In this document: positions 30,837 through 47,228 of the stretch, in pieces | How the letters are laid out: every line of letters begins with the position of its first letter | Numbering within the stretch: position 1 is the stretch's first letter | Source: Anaerofustis stercorihominis | GTDB taxonomy: Bacteria; Bacillota; Clostridia; Eubacteriales; Anaerofustaceae | DNA: 64,000 nucleotides | Assembly (NCBI GenBank): GCA_015058295.1 | Contig: SVCP01000004.1 | Coordinates: 4,040-68,039, forward strand | Reading direction: 5' to 3' | Program-made: the position numbers and the translations under genes | Notes under the pieces: model-generated | What the model was told of the DNA's origin: nothing | What the model saw: only the letters and a program-made list of their open reading frames with translations | Databases searched by the model: none

Positions 30837-30870
30837 AACACCACAGACTGATCTGTCTGTGGTGTTTTTA
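30837..30870 (+). terminator. rho-independent terminator after the PBP gene (left boundary of the island)
   Basis: AACACCACAGAC / GTCTGTGGTGTT stem followed by TTTA. Confidence 0.8.
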
Positions 30871-30994
30871 TGTGATTGATTATATGTGGATGGAATATTA
30901 TTGACACCCTGAGGTATAAAATATGCCTGTTTATATAATTATTTTCCGAAATATCATGCAGATTCCGTTATACATATCATACAGGAGGTCAGAT

Positions 30995-31693
30995 ATGTAT
31001 AACAGTATTTATAATTTACCGTCATTTTTTTACAGCGCTGCAACCGGTATCGGCAATATATCCGAAAGGATCTGTAACAGCATATACTACAGCCTTAATA
31101 ATATCTCCCGCAGAGTTTCACGAAGCAGAAGAAATTCTTACGGAGGCAGAAGAAATTCCGATACACATATATTCCGCGGACTTGTTACTTCATTAAATCC
31201 TGTGGGAAGATACAGGACTACGCTTCAGAAAATATCAGATGCGTTGTTCCTGGGTATTCCGTATACGATTGGATTCAGTGCATACAGTCTGCGATTCAGA
31301 GTCGAAAAGATCGATGATTACGGCAGGTATACAGATGATATAAGGGATTTTGTGTTTTTCGGTGATCTGGAAGGCGTCATTCAGCTCGGGAGCGAAGTTT
31401 CCGTCAGAAGTGACTCTTCCGGCAGAGTGAAAAGTGTACTTGTTCACGATACAGGAAGGGAATACCGACCTGCATCTGCATTGTCGGTAGTTCTTATCAG
31501 GGTTGCTGCCATATTGGCAGTCGCATTGTTCATAATGTTTATAGTGTCTGTTGTCAACGGGACGCTATTTGCTTTTCTCGGTGCATTTTTCGGTGGGATT
31601 TTTTCTGCGTTCGGTATGATGCTCATGTACCTTATGCCGTATGCGGTGTGTTTTATGATTGTTTATTATATTTTCAGGGGGATATTCAGCTGA
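30995..31693 (+). CDS. hypothetical membrane protein (soluble N-terminal domain plus 2-3 C-terminal TM helices)
   Basis: ATG at 30995 after AGGAGG; an alternative start at 30923 follows GAGGT. Hydrophobic C-terminal third. Confidence 0.55.
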   Translation: MYNSIYNLPSFFYSAATGIGNISERICNSIYYSLNNISRRVSRSRRNSYGGRRNSDTHIFRGLVTSLNPVGRYRTTLQKISDALFLGIPYTIGFSAYSLRFRVEKIDDYGRYTDDIRDFVFFGDLEGVIQLGSEVSVRSDSSGRVKSVLVHDTGREYRPASALSVVLIRVAAILAVALFIMFIVSVVNGTLFAFLGAFFGGIFSAFGMMLMYLMPYAVCFMIVYYIFRGIFS

Positions 31694-31695
31694 GT

Positions 31696-34185
31696 ATGGA
31701 AATGAGTTTCAGACAACGACAGAGTAAGTATATAAACGATGCGCCATCGCTGATAAATGCCATTACAGGAAAAATGCAGAGCGCAGGGACAATCGACAGA
31801 TATTTTTCTCCCGCAGAATTCCCCTGTATCACAAAAATACATGGGTACCGTTCGGCAGAAGACAAAGATATTGATAAAGACAGATGTATTTCGTTTATTA
31901 AATCCGTTGCGGAATATGACAGAGATTTTTGTGTAATGTATATTTCCGAAAACGGACTGATAAACATATATATTGCTACAGAATTCCCGATTCACACGAT
32001 ACTCAGCCTGCTTCCGGGAATAAGGGCCGAAACAACCGGATTCCCCGTAAGATCTTTTTCTGCAATGAAAAGCTGCGGGGTCGTCAGGGGTAGGAGCAAT
32101 CTGTATTTTGATGCGGATAAACTGCTCAGGCATATGTCGGGAAAAAACTGCGCCGTTGTCGTGACATTTACACCTGTGAGCAAAGATGATCTGTCGGCCG
32201 AAAGAGAAGTACTTCATAATCTCAGCACAGTATATTCCTCCCTGGAAACAAATGAAATAAAGAATTACAAAGGGGATATAAGGCTGACAAATCCGACTGT
32301 GTCGCTTCTGAATGAAATATTATCCTGTGCCACAGACAGAGTAAATGAAGCTATGGGTACGGGAATGTATACCTGCAGTGCATTCTGCTTTGGTGAGAAT
32401 AAGGATGAGATGAATTCTCTTGTTAATGCGTATATTTCTTGTGCCGACAAAAAAAGTATTATCAACGATAATCTCCCGGATATATTCTGTGGAAAGAAAT
32501 TAATTTATACTGATATTTATCCCATAAAAAATGAGACCATCTGTGTTCCCGGCAATGATTCGTATATGATGTACGGTCTGAAGGTATTCGGCAGGGAGTT
32601 GTCTTCAGAGATTACACTGAACGAAATAAGTTCAGCTGTATCTCTTCCGGTGTACTCACATGCAGGGTTTTCTGTGGAAAAGATAAGCAAAACACCTGAT
32701 GAATATCACATTTTTGATGTGAATATACCACGGGGAAAGGAAGGAGATACTATTTCTCCCGGAATTATCGCAGAAGGGAATCAAGCTTTCTGTATAGATA
32801 TAAACAGGCTGACTTCACACATACTCAACTGCGGCACAACAGGCTCCGGAAAGAGTAATACGGGGAGGGTGATCATCGGTGAGCTTGTGAAAAACAACAT
32901 CCCCGTCCTTGTGCTCGAAAGCAAAAAGCGTGATTACTGGAAATTTGCGGTATCAAGGGGAGGAAGAGTATTTTCCGCAACAAATGATGCAGAGGCACTT
33001 TGCTTTAATCCTCTCATACCGCAACCGGGAACAGTGATCGCAAATCATATTGAAAAGCTGATAGTTGCGTTTTCCTCCCAGAGTACCAATTTTGAGTCCC
33101 CCTTGCCGGAAGTTCTCAAAGGGCTTCTGGAAATAACATACAACAAAGCGGGATTCAGTGTGGACGAGACCGCAACGAGACGCGAAAAAAGAATATATCC
33201 CACTCCGAAGGATATGTTTTCACTTATGGGAGAGTATATTGACTCCCTGCCGTATTCGGGGAAAGTCAAAGACGATGTTTACGGAGCATTAAAGATGAGG
33301 CTTTCAGAGCTTTCTTACGGGATGGGCGGAAGGATATTCAACACAGACAAGGCGATTAATTTTGACGAGTGGTTTTCTTCTCCGGTTACGGTGATAGAAC
33401 TCGACAGTCTGGAAGAAAAGACCTGCAGTTTTACCGTATCAATACTTTGCTGTATGCTTGACGAATATCTCAGATCTCGTCCGGAGAGCCATATTCTCAA
33501 GAGAATGATTGTTCTCGAAGAAGCACACAGATTTTTCGCAAACACAGAAAGAATGAATGCATCGACAGATACAAAAGGAATGATAAGTGCGTACTTTTCT
33601 GAAATGCTCTCTACCATCAGAAGCTATGGAACAGGAATGATGATTATTGATCAGTGTCCGTCACGGCTTGATGGCAGTGCAGTTGCGAATACCGCAGTGA
33701 AGATAGTTCATGCACTGTCCGACAAAAAAGATGCGGAGGCAGTGGAATATCATCTTTCGCTCAGTGAAGAACAGAAAAGATATCTGACAAACCTTCAGAC
33801 AGGCCATGCAGTGATAAAACTTTCGGGGATTTCGCAGTGTTGTCTTGTGAAAATAAATCAAGCAGAATCTGAAAACGAAAAACCGCATCACGGCTGTATG
33901 TTCTGTGAAAAAGGCAACTGCGTATTCTCCGCAGCGACTGACATCTTTTCTTCCGGCAGATTTCGTGCTTTGTGTGATGCTATGTCAGATGAACTTCGTG
34001 ATGACGGAGATATTGAGTGTGTTATCAGTCTGATCATCAGGTGTGCATCGGAGTTTTACAATAATGAAATGGATTGTAAAAAAGAATTTCTCACCTGCTT
34101 TGGAGGAATGCTAATAAGCAAATCCCGATATGCGAATGCCGCATTGCTGCGTAGGACGATGAAGGAGTTTGTAAGGAGGTTATAA
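31696..34185 (+). CDS. HerA/FtsK-superfamily P-loop ATPase (DUF87-like) with large unassigned N- and C-terminal regions
   Basis: Walker A GTTGSGKS (nt ~32833-32856) and Walker B MIVLEEAHRF (nt ~33505). Cys/His cluster HHGCMFCEKGNC near the C-terminus. Start uncertain (31696, 31702 or 31648). Confidence 0.7.
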   Translation: MEMSFRQRQSKYINDAPSLINAITGKMQSAGTIDRYFSPAEFPCITKIHGYRSAEDKDIDKDRCISFIKSVAEYDRDFCVMYISENGLINIYIATEFPIHTILSLLPGIRAETTGFPVRSFSAMKSCGVVRGRSNLYFDADKLLRHMSGKNCAVVVTFTPVSKDDLSAEREVLHNLSTVYSSLETNEIKNYKGDIRLTNPTVSLLNEILSCATDRVNEAMGTGMYTCSAFCFGENKDEMNSLVNAYISCADKKSIINDNLPDIFCGKKLIYTDIYPIKNETICVPGNDSYMMYGLKVFGRELSSEITLNEISSAVSLPVYSHAGFSVEKISKTPDEYHIFDVNIPRGKEGDTISPGIIAEGNQAFCIDINRLTSHILNCGTTGSGKSNTGRVIIGELVKNNIPVLVLESKKRDYWKFAVSRGGRVFSATNDAEALCFNPLIPQPGTVIANHIEKLIVAFSSQSTNFESPLPEVLKGLLEITYNKAGFSVDETATRREKRIYPTPKDMFSLMGEYIDSLPYSGKVKDDVYGALKMRLSELSYGMGGRIFNTDKAINFDEWFSSPVTVIELDSLEEKTCSFTVSILCCMLDEYLRSRPESHILKRMIVLEEAHRFFANTERMNASTDTKGMISAYFSEMLSTIRSYGTGMMIIDQCPSRLDGSAVANTAVKIVHALSDKKDAEAVEYHLSLSEEQKRYLTNLQTGHAVIKLSGISQCCLVKINQAESENEKPHHGCMFCEKGNCVFSAATDIFSSGRFRALCDAMSDELRDDGDIECVISLIIRCASEFYNNEMDCKKEFLTCFGGMLISKSRYANAALLRRTMKEFVRRL

Positions 34186-34187
34186 AT

Positions 34188-35045
34188 ATGCTTGATTTTT
34201 ACGATTATGATGATATTTACGAAACCCCGGTGTATAAAGATATACTGTCTGCAATTACAGATACGCCCACGGAATACGAAGAACTTTCTGATAATACACA
34301 AAAAAGCATTGTCGAAATGCTTGACACAGGAGAATATATCCATACATCATTCCGAATCAATGATATTTCTGATATAACAATGCAGGACTATGAACTTGCT
34401 CTGAAAACAAAGTCTCTGGCATACGAAATGCTGCAGAAGAGTGAACACGGAGCGGAAGGTCTCGGAAAGTATTCAGAATATATTTCCGATGTGGCGAATT
34501 ACAGAAGAGACTCGGGAGAAAACTTTCAGGGAGATCTTTTCCACGAGATCATCGCGGCAAAAGACGGGTTCAACGGTATTCCCCATGTTCTCGATGAAGA
34601 TGAATTTGAAGAAGCTTCCCGGGGAAAGACCCTCTTGTACAGAGGGCTTTCCGCTTCTCCTGACGGAAAGAGCGCATTTGAGATAAGCGAGGATTTCAAG
34701 TATTCGGACAGGTTCTATCATGGTCTCGGGCTTTACGGAAACGGAATATATATGAGTCCGAGAGAAGATATAGCTAGATGCTATTCTGACGGAAGCTATG
34801 GCAGCGGAATAACTGCATTTCTCGACAGCGATGCAAGGATAATAACTTATGAAGATCTCCTTGAACGAAAAAAAAGGATTGATCTTGACGACGGAACAGA
34901 TGCGGGCAGGCTCGCAAATGAGATAATCAGCGACAACGGAAGATTTGCGGAACTTTGCGGATACGATGCCGTGAGCCTTGACGGATATGCAGGGCAGGAA
35001 CATATACTTGTGCTTAACAGAAGCAAACTGACAGTGAAGAAATAA
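34188..35045 (+). CDS. ADP-ribosyltransferase-like protein (R-S-E clade-like fold; glutamate motif atypical)
   Basis: LLYRG (Arg codon 34641-34643), GIYMS, and GYAGQEHILVLNRS (34983-35024). The last resembles the GYAGE.E.LLN segment of C2/iota/C3-type ARTs as I recall it. GGAGG RBS. Confidence 0.5.
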   Translation: MLDFYDYDDIYETPVYKDILSAITDTPTEYEELSDNTQKSIVEMLDTGEYIHTSFRINDISDITMQDYELALKTKSLAYEMLQKSEHGAEGLGKYSEYISDVANYRRDSGENFQGDLFHEIIAAKDGFNGIPHVLDEDEFEEASRGKTLLYRGLSASPDGKSAFEISEDFKYSDRFYHGLGLYGNGIYMSPREDIARCYSDGSYGSGITAFLDSDARIITYEDLLERKKRIDLDDGTDAGRLANEIISDNGRFAELCGYDAVSLDGYAGQEHILVLNRSKLTVKK

Positions 35046-35076
35046 AAAACAGGTCATCATTGACCTGTTTTTTTTT
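35044..35076. terminator. bidirectional rho-independent terminator shared by the two convergent island operons
   Basis: AACAGGTCA / TGACCTGTT stem with an A-run before it and T7 after it. It fills the whole gap between the two stop codons. Confidence 0.85.
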
Positions 35077-35077
35077 A

Positions 35078-35878
35078 TTATATGATTCCTGACAGGAATA
35101 ATGCTGCTGCGCAGGACAGAATCAGCCTGCCGCAATATCTGTAAAACAGCGGAAATGTTTCCGAGCGGTTAAGCAGAAGCGGAACGGAAATCATCGTAAT
35201 AACAATGCCTGCGGAAACCGTAATGATATTTTCTGTTGTCAGCAACAGAACCAGAAATAATGGAAGAAACCATATTGACAGGTGGGAACCATATCTTTCA
35301 GAAAAAGAATATATGATTCTGTTTACGCATACTGACAACACACACGCCCCGAAGAATCCTGCCCATCCGCTGAGTGTTGATACCGTAGACGGAAATATTA
35401 CCCCGATGATGGTGAATAACAGCTGTATTGCAAGATATATATATGACAGTGTTATTCCGTTTTGTTGCCGGCTGAGAAGTTCATCGCTTTCCCTGCGGTC
35501 TGCGGAAGGTTGTCTTCTTTGTGTGTTTCTCCGTCGTGTTGTCTGTCGTGTTGTAGTGTCTGTTGAATTTCCGGAACTCTCATTCTGTGTATTTTGCGGC
35601 CTCTGAAGATATTCACTCCGGACTCTCGGATAATACACCTGTGCCGCATATTGGTTTGCGTGAATGCTCTGTGCTGTGATTGCGGATCTTGAATTATGGA
35701 TTCTTACGGGGAAAACATATCCGCAGTTGTGACACTGATCTTCTCCGCGAAGCAGATCCTCCTTGCATACAGGGCAGTGAGACCTCTTAGAGTTTCTTGG
35801 TTTTCGTCTGAATCCGCAATGAGGACAAAGACTGCGTGTCCGTTCGAATAATGTATTGCATGCGGGACAATGTATCAT
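35078..35878 (-). CDS. double zinc-ribbon protein with a disordered basic linker and a C-terminal multi-TM domain
   Basis: N-terminus CPAC..CPHC..CPVC..CHNCGYVFPV.IH aligns with the two upstream paralogs. About four hydrophobic segments. Confidence 0.65.
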   Translation of the reverse strand: MIHCPACNTLFERTRSLCPHCGFRRKPRNSKRSHCPVCKEDLLRGEDQCHNCGYVFPVRIHNSRSAITAQSIHANQYAAQVYYPRVRSEYLQRPQNTQNESSGNSTDTTTRQTTRRRNTQRRQPSADRRESDELLSRQQNGITLSYIYLAIQLLFTIIGVIFPSTVSTLSGWAGFFGACVLSVCVNRIIYSFSERYGSHLSIWFLPLFLVLLLTTENIITVSAGIVITMISVPLLLNRSETFPLFYRYCGRLILSCAAALFLSGII

Positions 35879-35881
35879 ACT

Positions 35882-36970
35882 CTATGCTCCGAATATAGCC
35901 GCAACGGATGGCGCCTGACACAGCATAAAATATGTAAAAGTGATGCATGCAGCAGCAATGGTCGGTGTATATATAGCCAGAAAGAATCCTTCCGACCACA
36001 GATGATGATATTCACTTCGGAAAATGAACAACTCCGTAAATCCGATAATGCATGTCAGGATCAACAGCACTGCCGCTGTGATATACTGCACTCCCGGACG
36101 GAATGTCCCTGCGAGAAGCCCGAGCCATAAAATTCCGAGAATGATATTCGGAAGTACACCGTCGGCAATGTGGCTTCTGTAGCATCTTGAGATATTATGC
36201 ACAGACATAAGAAAAACCAGTACACTTATCCCTACACACATATATGCAGGCCATCTCAGTTCAGGGAATTCGATTGCCCAGGTCTGATTGACGCAAAGGA
36301 GTGAGCAGAAAACTATATTCTCCATTACGTGCGCATATCCGTCTGTAACATGAAGACGGGTTTGTGACAGGAGAGCCTTGCTTTCTGCACTCCGCGTTCT
36401 TTGCATCAGTGAGGTCATTTCATTTTGTAATGCAACAACTTCTTCAGAAGAACCGGCATCACTTCGCAGTTCGTCCAATATGGCAGACATCGAGTTGATT
36501 TCATCCATAAGCATATCTGCCGTGCGGGTTCTTTCTTCCAGCTGAGATTTTACATATTCAAGTTCCGCACTGTTTTCATTTGCTTTTGATCTGTGAATAA
36601 GAAGCTCGTAGTTCAGTTCATCTATATTTTTCTGCAGATTTTTAAGTTGCTCATCTTTAAGGTCAAGTTCTTTTTTATATTTTCCGTTGACGTTTTCAAA
36701 GTATTTTATTTTCTGTGACGGGAGGATGGTCTTTTCCGAGTACTCTTCGGCAAGTTCTCTTACGTATTGGTCTGTATATTCTGTGCTGTGGACCACCGCC
36801 GGCAGAGTAAATCCGCATTCCGGACAGCTTTCGTCTGTGTGGGAGAGCTTTTCAAAACAGGACGGACAGTATCTTCCTTTTTTGCTGTCAGGAGCGATTC
36901 GGAAAGAACATTCCGGGCATATTTTTATTCCGTCAGGTATTTCACTGCCGCATATTTTACATTTTATCAT
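35882..36970 (-). CDS. double zinc-ribbon / coiled-coil / multi-TM protein
   Basis: CKIC..CPEC..CPSC..CPECGFTLPAVVH, then a ~130-aa heptad-rich region, then ~4 TM segments. AAAGGAG RBS. Confidence 0.65.
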   Translation of the reverse strand: MIKCKICGSEIPDGIKICPECSFRIAPDSKKGRYCPSCFEKLSHTDESCPECGFTLPAVVHSTEYTDQYVRELAEEYSEKTILPSQKIKYFENVNGKYKKELDLKDEQLKNLQKNIDELNYELLIHRSKANENSAELEYVKSQLEERTRTADMLMDEINSMSAILDELRSDAGSSEEVVALQNEMTSLMQRTRSAESKALLSQTRLHVTDGYAHVMENIVFCSLLCVNQTWAIEFPELRWPAYMCVGISVLVFLMSVHNISRCYRSHIADGVLPNIILGILWLGLLAGTFRPGVQYITAAVLLILTCIIGFTELFIFRSEYHHLWSEGFFLAIYTPTIAAACITFTYFMLCQAPSVAAIFGA

Positions 36971-36994
36971 GCAGAAAACTCCTTTCAGGGTAAA

Positions 36995-37495
36995 TTAAAG
37001 TTCAATACCCGAGTTGTAAAGTCTGTCTTTGAGTACATCCAGCTCCTGCTGTACTTCCCTGAGTTTTTCTCTGGTCAGTTCATATCTTTGTTTGTAGTAT
37101 TTTTCTGTATCGGACAGTTTTATACTCTCTGCATTTGCGGGAAGCTCCCCGTATTTTTCCTTGTGGTTTATGTTTGCGATGTCTTTTTCAGCGAGCATCT
37201 TTTCATATTGAGCTATCTTTTCTTTAAGATACTTTTCCTTTTTGCGGGGAATATAGTATGTGCCTGCATATGTTACGGCCTCCGTTGTCACACGGGCGAG
37301 AACTTCGGGTGTGGGATGAATAATTACCGGGAAAGTATATCCGCATTCATCGCAGATCTCCTCACCTTTTTTTACGTTGTGATTGCAGGAGGGGCAGTAT
37401 GGTTTATTTTTATCTTCCGGTAAAAATCGGAATGAGCAAGAACATACCTCTGTTTTTACAGGAACTTCTTTTTCGCAGACAGGGCATTTTTTCAT
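36995..37495 (-). CDS. double zinc-ribbon / coiled-coil protein (soluble)
   Basis: CPVC..CSC..CPSC..CDECGYTFPVIIH, then a K/E-rich helical region. 4-nt overlap with the upstream radical SAM gene. Confidence 0.6.
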   Translation of the reverse strand: MKKCPVCEKEVPVKTEVCSCSFRFLPEDKNKPYCPSCNHNVKKGEEICDECGYTFPVIIHPTPEVLARVTTEAVTYAGTYYIPRKKEKYLKEKIAQYEKMLAEKDIANINHKEKYGELPANAESIKLSDTEKYYKQRYELTREKLREVQQELDVLKDRLYNSGIEL

Positions 37496-38115: not shown

Positions 38116-38125
38116 ATTTTTTACC

Positions 38126-39037: not shown

Positions 39038-39049
39038 AACAGACCTCTT

Positions 39050-40870
39050 TTATTTTTTCGTATTCTGCTCAAGTGCAAGGGGGGAGCCGTCAACAGCAAA
39101 TATCTCTCTTCCGCTGCGGAAGGTATTTGTTTTTTCGGTTCCGCTCATATCCTTGAGGTAAAGTGTGAGAGCATTATCTTTTCCTATTGAAGCTCCGAAA
39201 TAGTATGTCACACTGCTTTTGCCGGGCGTGAGGAAGAAACTGCGGTATGATGGGTGAGGATATGCGCAATACGGAGTTATTCCTTCGCCGTAATCGAGGA
39301 CTATCCTGTAATCCGCATTGCCGTCAAAGATAAACGGGATCTCGTTTCCGCCGGAATTCTTTATATAATACGGAATGTCCTTTTGTATTACCTGACGGTT
39401 GGTAAAGCAGTAAAAATATTTCGTCTCTCCGTTGAGGATAGCTTCAAGTCCTACACCGAAAGGTGCAAAATCACGGTATGTTATGTATCCGTTGCCGACA
39501 AGGGCTGCTCCCAGACTTACGGCGTGAGATCTCCAGTTTGCGGAAACTTCGCTGTATTCACCTGCATAAACATGAGATATATTGTTTATGAGGGTGTTGT
39601 CGTTTGCGGTGCGGTGATAGTTATATTCAAGGCGTGAGTTTTCCGAATCAGCCACATCAAGACCGAAGATTTTCAGGATATACCACCTTGTGAGATAGAA
39701 GTTTCCGAAACCTCCGATAACTGCTATCATCGGTTCAATTCCGCTTTGTTCAATAAATGATTTCGCCTCGTTAAGATATTTTTCGTAGCCGGGTTTAATG
39801 ACTTCTCCGAAGCTGCTAAAGAGCTGGGAAACGGTGATCTTTACTTTTCTGCCATCGTAATATATGAAGTTGTCATTTTTGCTGTTAAAGCAGAAATTTT
39901 CTTCTTCTTTCGCAAGGTCAGTGGTTTTTCTGAACTTCCAGCTTTTGTGATTAAACTTTACGCAAAGCTTTGAGAGCTTGTCGCTGATGGATTTTGCATT
40001 TGTTGTAAGCTTTGACTCGAGAGAGTTGAACGCCTCCCAGTAATCCCTGTTTTTCGGAATCTCCGAAATACCAAGCTGTGATGAGATACTCTTCGTCAGA
40101 ACATCATTTATGTATGCAAATCCCGCCTGTCCGAGTTTGTCTTCGGAATGAAGTCCGAGTCCCCATTTTTTTATGGGCTCAAACATACTTATGCCGTCAT
40201 TTGAATACACGTTTGCCAGAAGCACATCAAATGTTCCACCTCCTATATCTGCAAGAAGAATGGCTCCTTCGTAATTTCTGCCTTCGTTCGCTTTGTAGTT
40301 GTCAATGAGCATAGCCATTGCCGCCGCAGGCTCGTTGATTATGGATACATCGGTGTGCTGATCAAATACTTTGCTGTATTCTCCGTCAAGTTCGGTTATG
40401 GCGTTTTTCAGAACGGAAGTCATGATATCTGTAAGGACGACATCTTCCGGACGTGTATTGTTGTTCTGTCCCCAGATGAGAGGCATGCATATCTTTACGG
40501 AATCAACGTGGAGCCCTTCTGTGTTGCAACTGTCAGTAAACAGCTTCATAACATATTTTAAGAATTCTTTTGTAATGTATTTCGGAGTAAACTTGTCGGT
40601 ATAGCTGTTTCTTTCGAGGACGGAAGCATCTGTTTCGTTGATAAGCAGCTTGAAGCCTCTGTATACCACAACATTTCCTCCTCCGTTAAGTGCATCAAAA
40701 CCGAACTGCAGGTCATCATCTATTCTGCTTACTACAGAAGGTATCGCATAAGATGCACCGTTGAATGCAGCTCTGCGGACTATGTTATTGGAATCAATGC
40801 CAATAACGGAAGAGTTGTAGCTGATTTTCGTGTATGTCGTTCCGTTGTCAATTGAAATGTTGAGTCCCAT
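39050..40870 (-). CDS. divergent Hsp70/DnaK-family ATPase with a non-canonical C-terminal domain
   Basis: IDNGTTYT (phosphate 1), IINEPAAA and DIGGGTFDV (nt ~40225-40255). The C-terminal ~180 aa do not look like the DnaK substrate-binding domain. Confidence 0.75.
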   Translation of the reverse strand: MGLNISIDNGTTYTKISYNSSVIGIDSNNIVRRAAFNGASYAIPSVVSRIDDDLQFGFDALNGGGNVVVYRGFKLLINETDASVLERNSYTDKFTPKYITKEFLKYVMKLFTDSCNTEGLHVDSVKICMPLIWGQNNNTRPEDVVLTDIMTSVLKNAITELDGEYSKVFDQHTDVSIINEPAAAMAMLIDNYKANEGRNYEGAILLADIGGGTFDVLLANVYSNDGISMFEPIKKWGLGLHSEDKLGQAGFAYINDVLTKSISSQLGISEIPKNRDYWEAFNSLESKLTTNAKSISDKLSKLCVKFNHKSWKFRKTTDLAKEEENFCFNSKNDNFIYYDGRKVKITVSQLFSSFGEVIKPGYEKYLNEAKSFIEQSGIEPMIAVIGGFGNFYLTRWYILKIFGLDVADSENSRLEYNYHRTANDNTLINNISHVYAGEYSEVSANWRSHAVSLGAALVGNGYITYRDFAPFGVGLEAILNGETKYFYCFTNRQVIQKDIPYYIKNSGGNEIPFIFDGNADYRIVLDYGEGITPYCAYPHPSYRSFFLTPGKSSVTYYFGASIGKDNALTLYLKDMSGTEKTNTFRSGREIFAVDGSPLALEQNTKK

Positions 40871-40894
40871 GTTATTCTCCGAATATTTCTTTGA

Positions 40895-42268
40895 TTAATT
40901 TTTCTGAGAAGCAAGTCTTCTCATAGATTCACCGGCAGATGCGGAACACTGTGAAAGTCCGCCCTGCGCCGCTGAAACCAGGATATCATCCTCGGATTCT
41001 GCAATCCCGGAGGCTGACAATATGTTTGTTATGTCTCCTTCAACGGAGGCTCTTTCTTCCGGCTGTGAAAAGATCTCTCTGTACACAGTAAGTTCATCTC
41101 CCGGATTTACGGAAAGGATGACACTGTCTCCGAAATCATTTGAAATTCTCATTGTGACAGGGCCTACTGCATTGCTGTCAAGTCTCTCATCAATGGTCCA
41201 GCCACGGCTTTCCGACTGAGAGATGAGGTTGTCTGCGGCGCTGTGTGCGGCGATCTGTCTTAATCTGTTTTCGTTTGCTATTGATACAAGAGAGCTTTCA
41301 TCATCCGAGAGTACTTCGTCAAGGTCGTATTCCATTGTGTTTATCATCTGCTCAAGTGCGCGGTTGCCGAGAGATTCAGGTGTTTTTATGCGGTTTCTGA
41401 TGGCAATATAGTTCTCTCTTACCATCTCATAAAAGTTTTCTCCGTCATCCGTGAAAGCGTCGCACCACTCACCTACAGGGCAGGGGTATTTCGTGATGTT
41501 GTTATCTTCATCGGCAAGCAGAACTTCGTTTTCGTCACATTCTGCGAGCCTTCCATCCATTCTTACGGAAAGCTCATTTGCTCTTGCAATGAGAGACGGA
41601 CGTTTTTCGAAGTTTTCTGAGAGAATGTGATAGTGAATGAGCATATCCCTGTTGAACTGAGCATCTAAAATTGCTGTTACACTCTGAGTGTTGTCTCTCT
41701 GAAGTTCTGCACGGGCGCTTTCGATGACAAATGCAAATCTGTCGAGTTCTTCCTTGTCTTCTCCTCCGAAGTCAAGCTCTCTCATCTGCGAAAGAAGATT
41801 CTCTGCGTTGGAAAGAAGACTTGTTGCCGTTTCTTTTCTTCTGTTTTCAAGATCAAATATAGCATCGACTCTTTCGTTGGTTAAAGTTACCTGTCCGTAA
41901 AGGTCATCAATTCTGAAATTTACCTGATCGAGCTGACGGTTGATCATATCCACCCTGTGTCCGAGATCGTTTATTCTGTCTGTGTTTGCGTTGTTGAGCG
42001 CATCCTGCTGAGAGATCACATCTCTCAGTCTGTCGAGTTCTCTTTGTGTTGAACGGCTCAGTTCGTCATATCTTCTCTGGGCTTCAGCTCTTGCCTGCTC
42101 CGACTGAGCTCTTTCTTCTCTGATAATGCGCTCGACAGCTTCGTTAACCTGTGCATTGCCGTTTCTTACGGATGCAAGCTCTCTTTCGAGGTTTGCTGCT
42201 CTGTTGTAACCTGCAAGAAGACGGTTATATTCACTGTTTGATAATACTCGTGTTCGTTCGATACTCAT
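40895..42268 (-). CDS. coiled-coil protein with a globular C-terminal half (457 aa)
   Basis: The N-terminal ~200 aa are R/E/Q/L-rich heptads. Start chosen at ATG 42268, 8 nt after GGAG. Confidence 0.55.
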   Translation of the reverse strand: MSIERTRVLSNSEYNRLLAGYNRAANLERELASVRNGNAQVNEAVERIIREERAQSEQARAEAQRRYDELSRSTQRELDRLRDVISQQDALNNANTDRINDLGHRVDMINRQLDQVNFRIDDLYGQVTLTNERVDAIFDLENRRKETATSLLSNAENLLSQMRELDFGGEDKEELDRFAFVIESARAELQRDNTQSVTAILDAQFNRDMLIHYHILSENFEKRPSLIARANELSVRMDGRLAECDENEVLLADEDNNITKYPCPVGEWCDAFTDDGENFYEMVRENYIAIRNRIKTPESLGNRALEQMINTMEYDLDEVLSDDESSLVSIANENRLRQIAAHSAADNLISQSESRGWTIDERLDSNAVGPVTMRISNDFGDSVILSVNPGDELTVYREIFSQPEERASVEGDITNILSASGIAESEDDILVSAAQGGLSQCSASAGESMRRLASQKN

Positions 42269-42334
42269 AATAAGCACTCCTTTTATGTTTATTCGGTTAA
42301 TATAACCGGGCTTATTTTTATATATCGGAAAACA

Positions 42335-45300
42335 TCAGATATTTTCTTTGTTTTTGATATTTTTCATCAGTCTGTAAAGATTATCTATGTGTGCAAAACG
42401 ATTTGTTTCGCTGGGAGCATGTACTCCCGAGCTGGAATGGTTTATAGATCCGCACAGATATCCGATTACAAGGCCGTCTGTATTTATTATAGGTGCACCG
42501 GAATCTCCCTGATGAATCGCCTGTCCTTCAAAAAGGATATAACCGCTGTTGGTTCCCACTACTTTCGAAGGTGTATGCAGCTGCAGCTCTCTTATTCCGA
42601 GAGGATATCCTGCGGAGAATACCTTATCCTGAAGAGAGCACAGCTCCCCTTCAGGTGCAAGATTCAGTGAAGGATACACAGACCCGTTTTCAAAGCTGTC
42701 CTTTATGGCGAGGATCGCACAGTCGCCGTCTTCGGATGATGCGATTACGGAAAGGTGGATATTTTTCTCGAAGTTCATGGCGCCCTGTTTTATTTTCACT
42801 GTTGCGGTAAACGAATCCGCACCGTTTACGCAGTGGTGACATGTGGCAACATATTTTCCTCCGATAATGTATCCTGTGGAATGTGAATGTACCGAACCGC
42901 CTTTTTTTGCTTCGATCCTTACGATGGCATTTTCCATCTTTGTCAGGAAGCCTTCAGAAATATTATCGTTTTCGTCAAGTACATTTTCTTCGCCTGACGA
43001 GAGCGATTCAATAAATCCGTCCTCAGCAAATTCACGGGAATATATTTCCTTTTCATCCACTGCGGAACCTTCCTTTATGAATTTATAATCCTCAAGTTCT
43101 TTTATTGCATCAACGGAAAGAGTGTTGTCTTCCACAAACGGCCACAGGTCTTCTGCCAGTGCGCAAGCATACCTTGCGTTACCGAAGGCCGCACCTGTAT
43201 TTTGTTTGTATGTGATAATGCGCATAAGTGCATCTCTTGCTTCGTCGGTAACGATAACTTCCTGTGAGATAAGCTCACTCAGTTTGTGAGCGAATATTGC
43301 ATACAAAGCATCAACATCGTAATCCCCGATGCGTATCTCCGTAAAGCGGCTTTCAAGACCTTCCTGAGCAGATTTTACAGCCGCCCAGTCCTTTTCGTAT
43401 CCTGTGAAAATAACGCATATGTTGTTTTTTTCTCCGTCGGTTATGTAGGAGCACATATTGTTCACGGCATTTCTGCAGGCGCTATCAGAACGGACCTGCA
43501 GATCAAGTCCCGCTGTTTCATCAATAAGAAGTACAGACCCGTTTGCTTCCGAAAATGCTTCTTCCATTTTTTCGGGGGTGTTGATATCTGAAAATCTCTT
43601 CTGAATGAATGCTCCCGTTGAGAGTATACGGAATTCCCTGAACACGCGCCCCATAAGTCTTGCGAACTCTGTCTTTCCCGTTCCCGGATTGCCGAGAAGG
43701 GAATAATTTTTTACTTTAACTTTGCGCCTTATCTCGAGAATGCCTTTCTGCGTAAGTCTGCCGTTTTTTGTATTTCCGGGAAGAGATGCCACTTTTGTGA
43801 TGCGTCTGTGCATATTTCGGATTACATTTTTCACATCTTCCATACCCACAAATTCACTCATGATTTCCTCAAGTTCATTTTCGGTTATAAGGTGATACTC
43901 TTTATCGTATTTTTCAAGAGGAGTGCCTTTTGATGAAAAAGTATTCGCTCTGGTACAGGGAACAAGAAATTCTTCTTCAAGTGTGCGGACATTTGCCCAC
44001 TTCCGTTTTGTGTCTCCCAGGCGGTCAATGTACCAGTTTGTTAGAAAATCCCTCAGATCGTCATCGGCATAGCCTTCTTTGTATCGGATATTGTTGTTTT
44101 TGAGATATGATCTTGCGATCTCGAAAAGCTCGAGCTCCGAATATGTATCAAGCCTGATGAAATTCTGACGGAAACGGGAAGAAAGACCTTCATCGTTTTC
44201 CCAGATTTTTTCCATCCTGTCTTCATATCCCGCGAGTACAACAGCCATTCTGCCTTTGTAATTCGTGAGTGCCGGAATGAGTACTTCCATTATCTCCTGT
44301 TTGAAATGTTCTTCGTTGCCGTTGTTGTCGTGAACGCGGAGGTTGTGAGCTTCATCAATGAACAATACTCCCCCGACAGCATCTTTGATTCTGTTTTTCA
44401 TTTCAACGGCAGTCTGTCCCACAAATCCCTGCTTCAGCTGCCCTACGGAAGTTTCCACAAGATGGCCGCTGGGCAGGATTCCGAGATTTCGGAGTGCTTC
44501 CCCGAGAAGTCTTGCAACTGTGGTCTTTCCGCTTCCCGGAGGCCCCACGAGGACGAAGTTCAGGAATGCAGGTGCGTTTTTACTGTCTGCAGGAAAGAGC
44601 CTCTGCACAGCAAGATAATCAGGACAGATATGAGAAGTTACCTTTGATGGCTTTGTGCCACCATAAGCGGTTTTTATATCATTCAGCTCTCTTAGCAGCG
44701 TTTTGAATCCGTTTCCCTGCATATTTCTTATCTTTTCCAGCGGGTCTTCAGCGATATTCCTTACGCAGTTTTGCAGTTCGTCAAAATAAGATACTTTTTT
44801 GTTTTTGTAGCATACGGAGTTTTTCAGACCGCTGAGTGTTGCTGTTTTGTCAAAATTAATGCCTGATTTTTCCAGTGAAGAAACTATCTGGGGTTTTTGT
44901 GATTTTGTATCATCGGACTGGGAAGGGGTATATCTGTTTATCGCTACAAGCTGTGAGGATATATCCTCCAGAAGATTATAGTCAAGGGATATTTCCCCTT
45001 CGATGTCGGATTTGATGAGCATATTTTTTGCTTCATCAGTGCTGAATTTTTCAACTTCGATGAATCTTCCGTTGATGCTCTCAATATGTGCTTTGTTGTC
45101 ATAATTTTTCTTGAAGTCGCCTTCAGCGCAGGCTTCCCAGAATGACAGTTCTTTGAAAAGCTCATGAACAGCTTTCCATTCTTCCCGGATCTGCCCGTTT
45201 ACGGTTGTCATATTGTCCACATAGTCAATATCCGGGAATATAAATATAATATTTTTCCTTATTCTGTTGTTTGCCCTGAACTTCGAGAGAGTTGTGCAGA

Positions 45301-45757
45301 GCTTTATTATCTCTTCAGTCTTGTCAAGACTGTTTTTTATTATGTCAAAAAGATCTTCTCCGCTTAAGATGACTGCGGTGGAAAAATCTCTCTGTTCTTC
45401 TCCGAACATAAATCTGTCGATATATCTGAGCATCTTGATATACGAAGACAACTTATCCTTGTCCGTGAGAATTATCTTCGCACCGTTTACGGGAATGAAG
45501 CCTCTTTTCTGTGTTCCTTCGAGCTTGAACAGGTTCCCGAAATTCGTTGCGGAAATCTCATCGGACGCAAACGGACCGATGAAAGAGTCGTCTTTTTTGA
45601 AAGAGATTATGTAGTCATATCCCGCATATTTAAGATAGTTGTGAAGATACCCGAATATATCCACTTCCTCAAGGGAGTTCAGATAAAAGCGTTCGTTATA
45701 GATTTCTTTTGAAATAACGTATCCGAAGATCTCGTTTATTCCTTCAAAATATGCCAT
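42335..45757 (-). CDS. 1140-aa fusion: unassigned N-domain + two CbbX/SpoVK-type AAA+ modules + C-terminal trypsin-like serine protease
   Basis: Walker A GPPGSGKTT with Walker B VLFIDEAH (nt ~44521-44550). Second Walker A GNPGTGKTE with LLIDE (nt ~43670-43700). Protease His (TCHHC), Asp (DCAIL) and Ser (GDSGAPI, nt ~42494-42515). AAGGAG RBS. Confidence 0.75.
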   Translation of the reverse strand: MAYFEGINEIFGYVISKEIYNERFYLNSLEEVDIFGYLHNYLKYAGYDYIISFKKDDSFIGPFASDEISATNFGNLFKLEGTQKRGFIPVNGAKIILTDKDKLSSYIKMLRYIDRFMFGEEQRDFSTAVILSGEDLFDIIKNSLDKTEEIIKLCTTLSKFRANNRIRKNIIFIFPDIDYVDNMTTVNGQIREEWKAVHELFKELSFWEACAEGDFKKNYDNKAHIESINGRFIEVEKFSTDEAKNMLIKSDIEGEISLDYNLLEDISSQLVAINRYTPSQSDDTKSQKPQIVSSLEKSGINFDKTATLSGLKNSVCYKNKKVSYFDELQNCVRNIAEDPLEKIRNMQGNGFKTLLRELNDIKTAYGGTKPSKVTSHICPDYLAVQRLFPADSKNAPAFLNFVLVGPPGSGKTTVARLLGEALRNLGILPSGHLVETSVGQLKQGFVGQTAVEMKNRIKDAVGGVLFIDEAHNLRVHDNNGNEEHFKQEIMEVLIPALTNYKGRMAVVLAGYEDRMEKIWENDEGLSSRFRQNFIRLDTYSELELFEIARSYLKNNNIRYKEGYADDDLRDFLTNWYIDRLGDTKRKWANVRTLEEEFLVPCTRANTFSSKGTPLEKYDKEYHLITENELEEIMSEFVGMEDVKNVIRNMHRRITKVASLPGNTKNGRLTQKGILEIRRKVKVKNYSLLGNPGTGKTEFARLMGRVFREFRILSTGAFIQKRFSDINTPEKMEEAFSEANGSVLLIDETAGLDLQVRSDSACRNAVNNMCSYITDGEKNNICVIFTGYEKDWAAVKSAQEGLESRFTEIRIGDYDVDALYAIFAHKLSELISQEVIVTDEARDALMRIITYKQNTGAAFGNARYACALAEDLWPFVEDNTLSVDAIKELEDYKFIKEGSAVDEKEIYSREFAEDGFIESLSSGEENVLDENDNISEGFLTKMENAIVRIEAKKGGSVHSHSTGYIIGGKYVATCHHCVNGADSFTATVKIKQGAMNFEKNIHLSVIASSEDGDCAILAIKDSFENGSVYPSLNLAPEGELCSLQDKVFSAGYPLGIRELQLHTPSKVVGTNSGYILFEGQAIHQGDSGAPIINTDGLVIGYLCGSINHSSSGVHAPSETNRFAHIDNLYRLMKNIKNKENI

Positions 45758-45781
45758 TTTTAGCTCCTTATGCCGAATAAT

Positions 45782-46054
45782 TTAACGATCGAGTATTTCG
45801 ATGATATTGAGATATGCGTTATATTTTTTGCTGCAGTAACTGCAGTTTTTCATATGTCTGTTAAATTCCGTAAGCCTTTTCATATTATCTTCGTCTAGAC
45901 TTTTCATCATAATTATTTCCGCAAAGTCCGAAGGAGAGATATGTTTTACCGTATCATCGAACATTTCCCCGTTATCACGGGGAGGCTGTTCTTTTCCGGC
46001 AGAACGGATATTAATATTGAATCTGTCATTATCTTTTGAACGGTATTTGTCCAT
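45782..46054 (-). CDS. 90-aa protein with a zinc-binding anti-sigma-type HxxxCxxC motif
   Basis: RHMKNCSYC (nt ~45832-45857). No TM segment. Lies directly downstream of the sigma-like gene. Confidence 0.4.
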   Translation of the reverse strand: MDKYRSKDNDRFNINIRSAGKEQPPRDNGEMFDDTVKHISPSDFAEIIMMKSLDEDNMKRLTEFNRHMKNCSYCSKKYNAYLNIIEILDR

Positions 46055-46069
46055 TTTGTCTTTTCACCT

Positions 46070-47104
46070 TTACAGATAATCCTTCACCTCTGCGTAAAGA
46101 GCTTTATGAACCTTCTTCATAGAGCTTTTCGCCCAGTCGTACATATCTTTTTCCTTTCCGAAGACTTTAAAAAATGTGTCCTTGTACTTTTGTCCGTCCG
46201 GAATATTCCCTGCTGAACGGAATTTTGCTGGAACTTCTATTTCGAGTCTGTCGTCAAGACACGCAAATGAAATCTCTTCATCCATATTTACATCATATCC
46301 CATATATCTTACGAACAGACAGCGTATGTCGCTGTTTGCGTCGTTTCTCATCCTGTATAACCGGCTGTCGGCATATTTTCGGAAAACCGGCGTGTAATTT
46401 CCAAGGGATGATGTACTTTTTTTCATGAACGGGAATATTATCACACTGAACAGCGTTGAGAGTGTTTTGTAAGGAGCTTCCTTTTCAAACCCGAGCAGCG
46501 TATTGAAGCTTCTCATAAGTATTTTTATTTTTTCTGTTCTCATGAGAGAAGTATCCGCGTTATCTTCTGCCGAATATTCCCTGTGTGAGAGGATTCCTTC
46601 ATTATCAGAATCATCATCTGTTGTCTCGGGATATACAGATACGGTATGTATGTATTTCGGTGTGTTCTCAGGGTTCTTTTTATACTCCGGGTTGAGCACG
46701 ATGCCATACTGCTTCAGCGTATCGCTTATGGCACTGTTTGCACACATGCCAAGATAGCTGATGAAATTTCCTGTGTTTTTCATAAACAGGTTATCCCTGT
46801 CCGTAAACTTGGGCGGAATATTCTTCAGGGATTTGAGGGCAACTTCACTGAGGGCATCTTCGATAAATCTGTCTTTATCGAAATTTGCGGAATTTGAGTT
46901 AGCAGTTTTCAGTACAGCTGACAATGCCACATTCTTCGCCGCCGCAGAAATATATCTGCACGCTTCGGAAAAATTTTCCCGGAAAGCGCTGTCATCACTG
47001 TTGATCAGCTCTGAAATGTGATGTATGTCACCAAGTGTAATGTCTTCAAGAAATTCGTGTAAAGAACCGTCCGGTATTATCCTTTTTTCTGTAAATCTGC
47101 CCAT
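46070..47104 (-). CDS. hypothetical protein with a sigma-70 region-2-like segment (possible atypical sigma factor)
   Basis: FIEDALSEVALKSLKNI ... FISYLGMCANSAISDTLKQ resembles the ECF region 2 pattern (..QE.FLK.w.. / F..WL..IA.N...D..R). Start chosen at MGRFTEK after GAGGTG. The assignment is weak. Confidence 0.3.
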   Translation of the reverse strand: MGRFTEKRIIPDGSLHEFLEDITLGDIHHISELINSDDSAFRENFSEACRYISAAAKNVALSAVLKTANSNSANFDKDRFIEDALSEVALKSLKNIPPKFTDRDNLFMKNTGNFISYLGMCANSAISDTLKQYGIVLNPEYKKNPENTPKYIHTVSVYPETTDDDSDNEGILSHREYSAEDNADTSLMRTEKIKILMRSFNTLLGFEKEAPYKTLSTLFSVIIFPFMKKSTSSLGNYTPVFRKYADSRLYRMRNDANSDIRCLFVRYMGYDVNMDEEISFACLDDRLEIEVPAKFRSAGNIPDGQKYKDTFFKVFGKEKDMYDWAKSSMKKVHKALYAEVKDYL

Positions 47105-47202
47105 AAAACACCTCAGTAATACTTTAAAATAAGTATATATCATATTCAAAACAAAGTCCATATGAAGAGAACTTTTTTGGTACACATGATTGTTTGTCTG
47201 AA

Positions 47203-47228
47203 TTAAAAAACTGCCCGTGCGGGCAGTT
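47203..47228 (-). terminator. rho-independent terminator after the nitroreductase gene (right boundary of the island)
   Basis: AACTGCCCG / CGGGCAGTT stem followed on the minus strand by TTTTTTAATT. Confidence 0.8.

Follow-up and report, generated by a model that had tools for sequence, protein, structure and literature searches.

The window analyzed here is a 64,000-nucleotide (nt) stretch of contig SVCP01000004.1 (77,294 bp) from a human gut metagenome-assembled genome (MAG) that carries the species label Anaerofustis stercorihominis (family Eubacteriaceae). One segment of it carries 13 open reading frames (ORFs), g01 to g13, which form two convergent operons over 16 kb at the positions given in a preliminary description of this DNA (Table 1). 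Operon 1 (g01 to g03) occupies the forward strand with gaps of 2 to 3 nt between its genes, and operon 2 consists of ten reverse-strand genes (g13 to g04) with a spacing of -4 to 57 nt. In the NCBI annotation of the MAG, exactly 13 proteins lie between the penicillin-binding protein PBP1A (MBE6037912) and a nitroreductase (MBE6037926), and six proteins of the window are on record within this range. ORF map and annotation together matched the gene number, the convergent layout and the PBP1A and nitroreductase borders described earlier; a RluD-type pseudouridine synthase and an aminotransferase are further flanking genes. Terminator-like hairpins were found at both edges and, as a shared bidirectional terminator, between the operons, as the preliminary description had proposed. 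The window as a whole contains 31 terminator-like sites, compared to 15.1 +/- 4.2 in shuffled sequences.

Table 1. Features of the 13-gene segment and its edges. Positions are those of the window; lengths are in amino acids (aa).
Feature	Position	Strand	Description	Basis or remark
Left edge	30837..30866	+	Terminator-like hairpin ending the PBP1A gene	12-bp stem, 6 GC pairs, T-run
g01	30923..31693	+	256 aa, three C-terminal transmembrane (TM) segments (aa 182-238); first in operon 1	ORF, hydropathy
g02	31696..34185	+	VirB4/HerA-fold P-loop ATPase, 829 aa	ORF reaches back to 31648
g03	34188..35045	+	285 aa, toxin-type C-terminal domain	Weakly ART-PolyVal-like
Operon junction	35044..35073	both	Shared bidirectional terminator between the convergent operons	13-bp stem, T-runs on both strands
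g04	35078..35878	-	Double zinc-ribbon N-terminus, low-complexity linker, 4 TM segments; last gene of operon 2	
g05	35882..36970	-	Double zinc ribbon, coiled coil and at least 3 TM segments; paralogous to g04	
g06	36995..37495	-	Zinc-ribbon and coiled-coil paralog, soluble	
g07	37492..38115	-	NrdG/PflA-type radical SAM enzyme, 207 aa	Fer4_12, motifs
g08	38126..39037	-	Coiled-coil protein, 303 aa	Coiled-coil-type matches only
g09	39050..40870	-	Divergent Hsp70-like ATPase, 606 aa	Cluster c3 profile, motifs
g10	40895..42277	-	460 aa, N-terminal coiled coil, small C-terminal globular domain	
g11	42335..45757	-	1140 aa, two SpoVK/CbbX-type AAA+ modules and C-terminal trypsin-like protease	Pfam, motifs
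g12	45782..46054	-	90 aa, C-terminal HxxxCxxC motif	Possible small regulator
g13	46070..47104	-	344 aa, first in operon 2	ORF reaches to 47185
Promoter-like sites	47132..47166	-	Promoter-like hexamer pairs upstream of g13	Consensus matches only
Right edge	47209..47228	-	Terminator-like hairpin ending the nitroreductase gene	8-bp stem, 5 GC pairs

Two gene starts required a choice. The listed start of g02 is probably correct, since the resulting product is 100% identical to the NCBI protein of the MAG (P0125), and g13 probably starts at 47104, as called in contigs of the Joint Genome Institute (JGI); this start leaves space for a promoter. An identical 256-aa call for g01 is present on JGI contig L149 (loci and contigs used for comparison carry L numbers). 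Hydropathy revealed clear TM segments in three proteins (g01, g04 and g05), so that the earlier count of four membrane proteins had to be lowered.

The first gene of operon 1, g01, had no match in Pfam, NCBIfam or PADLOC. For g02, the assignment as a HerA/FtsK-like ATPase was confirmed by a Pfam match of its single P-loop domain to DUF87/HerA (E 5.8e-13), with GTTGSGKS as the Walker A and MIVLEE as the Walker B motif. The N-terminal ~370 aa constitute a separate domain, and the protein is devoid of TM segments. An AlphaFold2 (AF2) model, calculated from a multiple sequence alignment of 36 sequences, reached a mean predicted local distance difference test score (pLDDT) of 70. With Foldseek, the best match to this model was TrwK/VirB4 from the type IV system of R388, over its full length (E 8e-16), followed by the VirB4 C-domain from Thermoanaerobacter (TM-score of 0.75), DndH-C (0.70) and HerA (~0.5). 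Curated sequence models for these families scored far under their cutoffs: 45.7 bits were obtained against the NCBIfam VirB4 models (cutoff of 590) and 32 bits against HerA_antiphage (cutoff of 800), and the TraC equivalog and the CedD model also remained far below theirs. Because the VirB4, HerA and CedD models all behave in this way, g02 appears to represent a separate clade. The HerA matches in PADLOC span only the C-terminal half of the protein.

Two groups of known systems resemble operon 1 in part. As to type IV secretion systems, VirB4/TrwK is the best match to the modeled g02 structure, and the gene of a small membrane protein (g01) lies just upstream, as does VirB3 for VirB4. In contrast to these systems, Pfam searches revealed no VirB6, VirB8, VirB9 or VirB10, no coupling protein and no relaxase among the products of the segment or its immediate flanks; moreover, the g02 family precedes swappable toxin genes, and its larger versions follow dynamin-like GTPases. 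With HerA-based defense systems (SIR2-HerA/Nezha, DUF4297-HerA, DndFGH and TdpAB), operon 1 shares the position of an FtsK-HerA hexameric ATPase gene beside an effector gene, and g02 showed structural matches to SIR2-HerA and DndH-C as well as PADLOC domain matches to HerA and mad8. However, SIR2 and DUF4297 are missing, the effector domain is a different one, operon 1 includes a membrane partner, and g02 carries a VirB4-like N-terminal domain instead of the HAS barrel of HerA.

Relatives of g02 were found on 44 plasmids and on 15 IMG/VR contigs, and in their cassettes the ATPase is the only conserved gene. It is followed by a Gln_amidase papain-fold toxin and two small ORFs in L126, by an HNH/EndoVII nuclease and an SMI1/KNR4 protein on plasmids of Lactococcus cremoris and Escherichia coli, by an HExxH protein in L142 and by a 482-aa protein without a known family in L007. 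This is the pattern of polymorphic toxin systems, in which a conserved gene, here the ATPase, precedes interchangeable toxins (ADP-ribosyltransferase [ART]-like, Gln_amidase, HNH/EndoVII or HExxH); SMI1/KNR4 proteins belong to the SUKH group, whose members confer immunity to nuclease toxins (PMC3113570). Since only the ATPase is conserved while the downstream gene varies, operon 1 is a reduced member of a previously undescribed family of cassettes that consist of an ATPase plus a "toxin slot." Larger versions of the family contain two dynamin-family GTPases and tail-anchored membrane proteins upstream of the ATPase. Two tight operons of this kind are located on conjugative plasmids (L147, 362-9145, L. 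cremoris pB26B; L148, 938-9337, E. coli pTW10590_133) and comprise two dynamin GTPases, one or more tail-anchored membrane proteins, a g02-type ATPase of ~1080 aa, an HNH/EndoVII nuclease and an SMI1/KNR4 or small protein. No description of this dynamin-ATPase-toxin operon was found in the searchable literature.

The product of g03 would fill the toxin slot of operon 1. Its N-terminal ~110 aa are unique, and its C-terminal ~175 aa represent a toxin-type domain with 908 representative relatives. Many of these relatives are the C-termini of Phage_Mu_F or minor-capsid-2 proteins, and some of the fusion proteins additionally bear Zeta-toxin or ADPrib_exo_Tox domains. These fusions represent the polymorphic toxin pool of MuF proteins, which comprises nucleases, metallopeptidases and ARTs (Jamet et al. 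2017, PMC5576092). For the ART-like effector that had been proposed, the analysis revealed a toxin-type domain with weak likeness to ART-PolyVal; the ART match itself stayed below the Pfam cutoff. ART-PolyVal was matched by 4 of 35 relatives, and the profile of the family gave only weak matches in the PDB, to diphtheria toxin and PARP4 (E 0.3-0.5). The family conserves an RG motif, an invariant Tyr and an LNR motif, with no invariant Glu. The C-terminal domain of g03 is homologous to those of Phage_Mu_F and minor-capsid-2 proteins, and the toxins encoded behind g02-type ATPases (ART-like, HExxH, HNH) mirror the MuF set. Unlike MuF toxins, g03 is a stand-alone, chromosomally encoded protein with an N-terminal region of its own, no MuF domain and no small downstream ORF. 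An N-terminal "trafficking" domain common to the toxin-slot proteins was considered and rejected, as its sole signal, an 8-bit match between g03 and an HNH protein, was noise.

The core of operon 2 is formed by g11 and g07. The fusion of tandem SpoVK/CbbX-type AAA+ modules to a serine protease, recognized already in the preliminary description, resides in a single protein, g11, with all Walker motifs and the catalytic triad intact. A unique N-terminal domain (aa 1-385) is followed by Walker A motifs at 405 and 689 and Walker B motifs at 464 and 742, both AAA modules keep GxxGxGKT and hhhhDE, and the trypsin-like triad is in place (His975, Asp1012, Ser1086). The Pfam matches were AAA (1e-24) and Trypsin_2 (5e-12). 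The proposed radical S-adenosylmethionine (radical SAM; rSAM) activase proved to be an NrdG-like rSAM enzyme by Pfam (Fer4_12, 2e-25), NCBIfam and a profile search of the PDB, in which the pyruvate formate-lyase (PFL)-activating enzyme was the sole match (2.5e-12). Its score against the NrdG model TIGR02491 (1.5e-24, 86.7 bits) is below the equivalog cutoff of 126.1, which places g07 among the glycyl-radical activases at the family level only. Like NrdG and PflA, g07 keeps the CX3CX2C (C28-x3-C32-x2-C35), GGE (GGEP73) and GSSNQ (GSSNQ144) motifs; unlike theirs, its neighbors are AAA+ and coiled-coil proteins, with no glycyl-radical enzyme nearby. The protein is ~40% identical to the rSAM enzymes of L005 and L006 and has a C-terminal extension (approximately aa 160-200) that is common to AAA-linked relatives.

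To place this pair in context, one genome per species was scanned with the rSAM profile. At least 80 loci were recovered, and ORF clustering covered 84; the locus counts given here refer to these 84 clustered loci among the matches listed. A SpoVK/FtsH-type AAA protein adjoins the rSAM gene in 55 of the 84 loci, a coiled-coil protein of ~500 aa (cluster c2) is inserted between the two in 36, and 18 contain Hsp70-like genes. One to four AAA modules make up the partner AAA proteins, about one-third of which end in a trypsin domain. The close gut-metagenome relatives of g11 share operons with an rSAM enzyme of ~40% identity. rSAM-AAA pairs occur in at least five phyla (Bacillota, Bacteroidota, Planctomycetota, Myxococcota and Pseudomonadota), a patchy spread that is typical of mobile conflict systems.

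Five architectures were distinguished. Architecture A has the order Hsp70-Hsp70-CC-x-CC-rSAM-c2-AAA(3-4)-trypsin-ZnR/RCC1 (CC, coiled coil; ZnR, zinc ribbon) and occurs in Lachnospiraceae and Oscillospiraceae, and architecture B is a minimal rSAM-c2-AAA arrangement, with or without Hsp70, of Bacillota, Bacteroidota and Candidatus Brocadia. Architecture C, from Ruminococcus, places four to five TerD paralogs (TerD, 3e-70) before rSAM-c9-c2-c2-AAA; architecture D (Myxococcota, Gemmataceae) begins with rSAM-fvmX6-fvmX5-AAA; and architecture E (AAA-PIN-x-AAA-rSAM) was seen on a conjugative plasmid of Moellerella and in gammaproteobacteria of marine origin. Operon 2 contains the rSAM, AAA-trypsin, Hsp70-like and zinc-ribbon parts in an order unlike that of the other architectures. 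The tandem TerD arrays stand directly upstream of rSAM-c9-c2-c2-AAA at ten loci in Ruminococcus and Lachnospiraceae MAGs (L029, L033, L035, L036, L042, L045, L047, L050, L055 and L060) and tie the tellurite-resistance/TerD stress module to the rSAM-AAA core. Type E loci (L131, 1-9549, Moellerella wisconsensis plasmid pW18-2-a; L044, L052, L054, L066, L094 and L096) encode an AAA protein of ~1300 aa, an 800-aa PIN-domain protein, a 381-aa protein, a 620-aa AAA protein with domain-level PADLOC matches to PDC-M37B and DolB, and the rSAM enzyme. On the Geminocystis plasmid pGM01, the rSAM gene is found among an anti-phage dCTP deaminase, a dGTPase, BrnT and HigB. Carriage of the rSAM system by phages was rejected: the rSAM matches on viral contigs are mostly ordinary phage NrdG, and only three are accompanied by a type E AAA protein.

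The inventory of operon 2, which unites an rSAM enzyme, a protease, small and zinc-ribbon proteins and membrane proteins, would also suit a pathway for ribosomally synthesized and posttranslationally modified peptides (RiPPs), in which g07 would modify g12 or a zinc-ribbon protein, the protease would trim it and the membrane proteins would serve export or immunity. We regard such a pathway as very unlikely. The conserved partners of the rSAM enzyme are a large AAA+ protein and the 500-aa coiled-coil protein, not a short precursor, and no conserved leader or core peptide was seen. With its 207 aa, g07 matches only Fer4_12/Radical_SAM and has no SPASM domain, auxiliary-cluster domain or RiPP recognition element, and Pfam detected no ABC exporter among the products.

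The remaining proteins of operon 2 were compared to those of the related loci. On its own, g09 scores under the Pfam cutoff and is barely detectable. Its assignment as a divergent Hsp70 holds by the hidden Markov model (HMM) of cluster c3, the Hsp70-like proteins of related loci (5.6e-30), and by a joint profile of the g09 family, which matched BiP/DnaK in the PDB at ~1e-79 over the nucleotide-binding domain and the beta substrate-binding domain (DnaK residues 1-503). The motifs DNGTT8, DIGGGTFD208 and GGFG386 are present. Only four relatives of g09 were retrieved with the word index from 5.8 billion proteins. The nearest, P0001 (26% identity), belongs to a different 13-gene cluster on human gut metagenome contigs (L001-L004), whose genes specify two AAA proteins, encoded separately, plus a zinc-ribbon protein and a helicase of 1598 aa (DUF4011/AAA_11/AAA_12/MTES); no rSAM gene lies within 10 kb. 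The products of g04, g05 and g06 are double zinc-ribbon paralogs, the first two with TM segments. Four CxxC motifs and subthreshold Pfam matches to DZR/Zn_ribbon were seen in g04, whose N-terminus matches the zinc ribbon of the c8 proteins of related systems (E 5e-6). The coiled-coil protein g08 showed a weak match (1e-5) to cluster c13, which adjoins the rSAM gene in related systems. When the C-terminal domain of g10 was aligned with the tails of c2 proteins, Smith-Waterman z values of up to 6.8 were obtained (control medians of ~0, maxima of 1.9-4.9), which, together with visual inspection of the alignment, suggests that g10 could be a divergent counterpart of c2.

The sigma/anti-sigma pair suspected in g13 and g12 could not be substantiated. 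HMM support for sigma70 r2/r4 or zf-HC2 was not obtained, and only the HxxxCxxC motif of g12 (HMKNCSYC, residues 67-74) points in this direction, resembling zinc-binding anti-sigma factors with no support from Pfam. We rejected g13 as a sigma factor: it had no Pfam match even at E <= 10 and no PDB sequence match, and its single-sequence AF2 model was unusable (pLDDT of 42).

Among published systems, the FtsH ternary systems come closest to operon 2; a "distinctive radical SAM" effector has already been noted in them (Kaur, Burroughs, Iyer & Aravind 2020, eLife, PMC7159879). Architecture D is the published FtsH ternary system (vWA-MoxR subsystem 3), and the g07 profile recovers its myxobacterial and planctomycete loci with fvmX5, fvmX6 and a 706-aa AAA protein. 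In both cases, an rSAM enzyme of the same family adjoins a classical-clade multi-AAA+ protein, and both are predicted systems with a multigene, NTP-dependent, chaperone-like logic. In contrast to the FtsH ternary systems, the 13 products include no MoxR, vWA or fvmX protein by Pfam. Furthermore, both AAA modules of g11 are of the active type, whereas the N-terminal copy of the ternary system lacks Walker A and B motifs, and operon 2 adds the AAA-trypsin fusion, an Hsp70-like ATPase, coiled-coil proteins and zinc-ribbon membrane proteins. Operon 2 would thus be a variant of a kind known from computational work, namely conflict systems that are NTP-dependent, based on chaperones and equipped with an rSAM-AAA pair. 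The combination of rSAM, c2, poly-AAA, trypsin and Hsp70 was not found in any published description, and the Ophion rSAM system is unrelated. The earlier statement that the gene combination corresponds to no named system stands, as PADLOC finds none; domain-level matches were limited to HerA/mad8, RT-Protease_XI (trypsin), PDC-M37B (4.5e-7) and pVip (9e-6).

The preliminary description had treated the 13 genes as one system, and we asked whether both operons recur together. Homologs of g01, g02 or g03 were absent from the 80 rSAM loci listed, and genes of the g07 or g11 type were absent from ~20 loci of the g02 family. No orthologous pair of both operons was found elsewhere, and the operons therefore have to be treated as separate modules, as the preliminary description itself had stipulated for this outcome. 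Component families do recur together in other forms. A three-gene module encoding a protein of ~100 aa, the HExxH protein c30 (~370 aa) and c56, a soluble ATPase that resembles TrwB/VirD4 (1.5e-14 against TrwB in the PDB), lies beside rSAM/AAA/Hsp70 systems at seven or more loci from several genera and with different architectures (L023, 18151-20558; L025, 19744-20558; L071, 3821-5284 and 18452-19985; L076, 1-2374; L005, 1-878; L063, 11328-13019). This module is analogous, not homologous, to operon 1; c30-like proteins also fill the toxin slot after g02-type ATPases. Conversely, Hsp70-like genes share an operon with a g02-type ATPase in L134, L135 and L138 (E down to 1e-82), and weaker Hsp70-like signals were seen in the g02-type loci L142 and L126. 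With ~1 to 3 genes of Hsp70 type per genome, well under one such case per ~20 loci would be expected by chance. The three operons, on IMG/VR viral contigs (L134, 4363-12677; L135, 4420-13005; L138, 4594-13374), encode the g02-type ATPase, an acidic protein of ~187 aa, a protein of ~526 aa with an Ig-like C-terminal region and an Hsp70 of the DnaK-like type, as well as two membrane proteins, one small with TM character and one J-like/TPR (tetratricopeptide repeat) protein of ~407 aa. Type III-A CoCoNuT operons likewise mix SpoVK-like, EssC-like or VirB4-like ATPases with Hsp70-like proteins (PMC11090510). Because the component families recur together in these ways, a functional link between the two operons is possible.

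Such a link could be so close that all 13 genes form one integrated toxin-delivery apparatus, in which g02 and the membrane proteins would export, the Hsp70 and AAA+ proteins would act as chaperones, the protease would process, and g03 would be the toxin directed against competitors. The VirB4/TrwK-like fold of g02, the toxin and SUKH immunity pairs behind g02-type ATPases and the three membrane proteins agree with such an apparatus. So do the Hsp70-like genes in the g02-type operons, the TrwB-like ATPase and HExxH modules beside rSAM/AAA/Hsp70 systems and the comparable mixture in CoCoNuT operons. We nevertheless consider it unlikely, given the lack of orthologous co-occurrence in both sets of loci, the absence of detectable VirB6/8/9/10, coupling protein, WXG100 or signal-bearing substrates from the 13 products and flanks, the absence of an immunity gene downstream of g03 and the convergent orientation of the operons, each presumably with its own promoter and ending at a common terminator. 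The type VII secretion system, invoked earlier as a loose analogy, shares the parts list only: an FtsK-HerA ATPase, a CbbX/SpoVK-type AAA+ protein, a serine protease, membrane proteins and a toxin. However, g02, with its one P-loop domain and its VirB4 fold, differs from the three-domain, membrane-anchored EssC, and no WXG100 or LXG match was obtained with Pfam among the 13 products. Similarly, the g11 protease has a trypsin fold fused to AAA modules, whereas mycosin is a membrane subtilisin, and the g11 AAA region had no TPR match, whereas EccA has an N-terminal TPR domain. The two interpretations offered earlier for the whole segment each retain one operon. A regulated conflict system fits operon 2 best, with its rSAM-AAA core recurring in FtsH ternary systems, TerD arrays and a plasmid defense island, though not all 13 genes as a unit; toxin delivery fits operon 1 better on account of the swappable toxins, with a type IV rather than a type VII analogy, as the parts that define the latter are absent.

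We therefore favor, with a probability of about 0.5, the reading that the segment comprises two neighboring, separately transcribed conflict-system modules and is not one housekeeping cluster. Several observations weigh against this reading. The status of an accessory island, assigned in the preliminary description, found no support: the GC content is flat at 0.40-0.44, the tetranucleotide distance is within ~1 standard deviation of the window mean, and Pfam detected no integrase or mobility gene in the segment or directly beside it. All contigs with an identical PBP1A or nitroreductase gene also bear the corresponding edge of the segment, which is present wherever the species was sampled. Only modest enrichment of defense genes (kinases, TPR and leucine-rich repeat proteins, few helicases) was seen in the flanks of related loci, PADLOC-DB v2 returned generic domain matches and no known system, and it is genomic context that suggests a conflict role for both families. 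In operon 1, the ART-PolyVal match of g03 is subthreshold (E=0.002, 19.4 bits, cutoff of 31.2), and, unlike in its relatives, the gene is directly followed by a terminator with no immunity gene. In operon 2, HMM searches for g10 as a c2 member were negative, g12 and g13 are without any family assignment, and no glycyl-radical enzyme domain of NrdD or PFL type was detected by Pfam in the segment. We also searched the tails of c2 and g10 and the regions after the zinc ribbons of g04 to g06 for a glycyl-radical site and dropped the idea because no conserved glycine of the RVxG[YF] type was present.

These observations partly coincide with what an ordinary proteostasis, envelope or developmental cluster would display, that is, quality control of SpoVK, FtsH or Lon type with Hsp70 beside an unrelated ATPase cassette. 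The unremarkable composition (GC content and tetranucleotide usage revealed no deviation), the lack of mobility genes, the presence in every sampled contig of the species and the resemblance of an AAA-protease plus Hsp70 to protein quality control all speak for such a cluster. Even so, we give it little credence. The distribution over at least five phyla is very patchy and not lineage-wide, relatives reside on plasmids and in defense-type neighborhoods, g09 has just the four word-index relatives, and the architecture varies widely among loci, as is typical of conflict systems.

The surroundings of the segment gave little basis for comparison with close relatives. Scanning metagenomes with PBP1A did not reveal any close relative whose downstream DNA could display an empty site, the 90% clusters of the segment and flank proteins have one or two members each, and no Anaerofustis locus was among the matches listed in the rSAM-profile scan of genome contigs. 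PBP1A and the nitroreductase have no relatives of >=90% identity in a collection of 15 billion proteins, and the best metagenomic PBP1A match is 67% identical. Because even these housekeeping flank proteins have no such relatives, the MAG may be well separated from the sequenced Anaerofustis strains, its species label notwithstanding. The window contains no tRNA gene. Its sole match at the Rfam gathering level is a T-box leader (52037-52233, reverse strand; RF00230, 128.8 bits) upstream of a 659-aa gene (50024-52003), which probably encodes an aminoacyl-tRNA synthetase.

Within the two-module reading, operon 1 (module A) would be a toxin-deployment cassette. The hexameric VirB4/HerA-fold ATPase g02 would work with its membrane partner g01, and together they would hand over, activate or export the product in the toxin slot, here g03, whose ART-PolyVal-like domain would come from the same pool as the phage MuF toxins. 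The output could be export or, alternatively, activation in the manner of abortive infection. Export and antagonism are favored because relatives have toxin and immunity pairs, and defense is compatible because an immunity gene is missing here and relatives occur in plasmid and prophage contexts. Operon 2 (module B, g13 to g04) would be an ATP-driven, chaperone-gated effector system around the pair of rSAM enzyme and multi-AAA+ unfoldase. First, the Hsp70-like g09, together with the coiled-coil proteins g10 and g08, would capture a client or trigger protein, which the tandem AAA+ ring of g11 would then unfold or remodel and pass on to the trypsin-like protease of the same polypeptide. As a third step, g07 might act like a glycyl-radical activase and arm or modify a component by abstracting hydrogen from a protein partner, and the zinc-ribbon membrane proteins g04 and g05 would finally anchor the machine in the membrane or function at that site. 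The data show the anatomy of the genes, the identity of their domains, the integrity of the catalytic motifs and the recurrence in other genomes of the rSAM-AAA core and of an ATPase followed by a variable toxin. What the rSAM enzyme acts on, in which order the events take place, whether the modules cooperate and that they serve conflict or defense is what we infer.

A more far-reaching and rather doubtful extension would see the rSAM-multi-AAA+ pair with c2 and optional Hsp70-like, trypsin, TerD or vWA-MoxR parts as a large superfamily of immune or conflict systems, in which the activase acts on a nonmetabolic partner and cassettes of the operon 1 type are coupled outputs, so that the 13 genes would be one unit after all. 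To our knowledge, the chemistry of a glycyl-radical-type activase acting on a nonmetabolic protein partner is not known in immunity.

Through the VirB4-like ATPase/toxin-slot family, dynamin-like GTPases and Hsp70-like proteins are linked to motors of the secretion type and to the pool of phage MuF toxins; we found no description of this connection in the literature. PADLOC does not include the rSAM-AAA core of operon 2, even though this core is widespread, with representatives on plasmids and in five or more phyla. Cultured carriers include Eubacterium ramulus (strain 21), Blautia (HCP3S3_G3), Bacteroides caecigallinarum, Kordia and, on plasmids, Moellerella. If the role in defense or antagonism is true, gut anaerobes would possess a class of systems that pairs a radical SAM activase with a poly-AAA+ unfoldase-protease and a private Hsp70.

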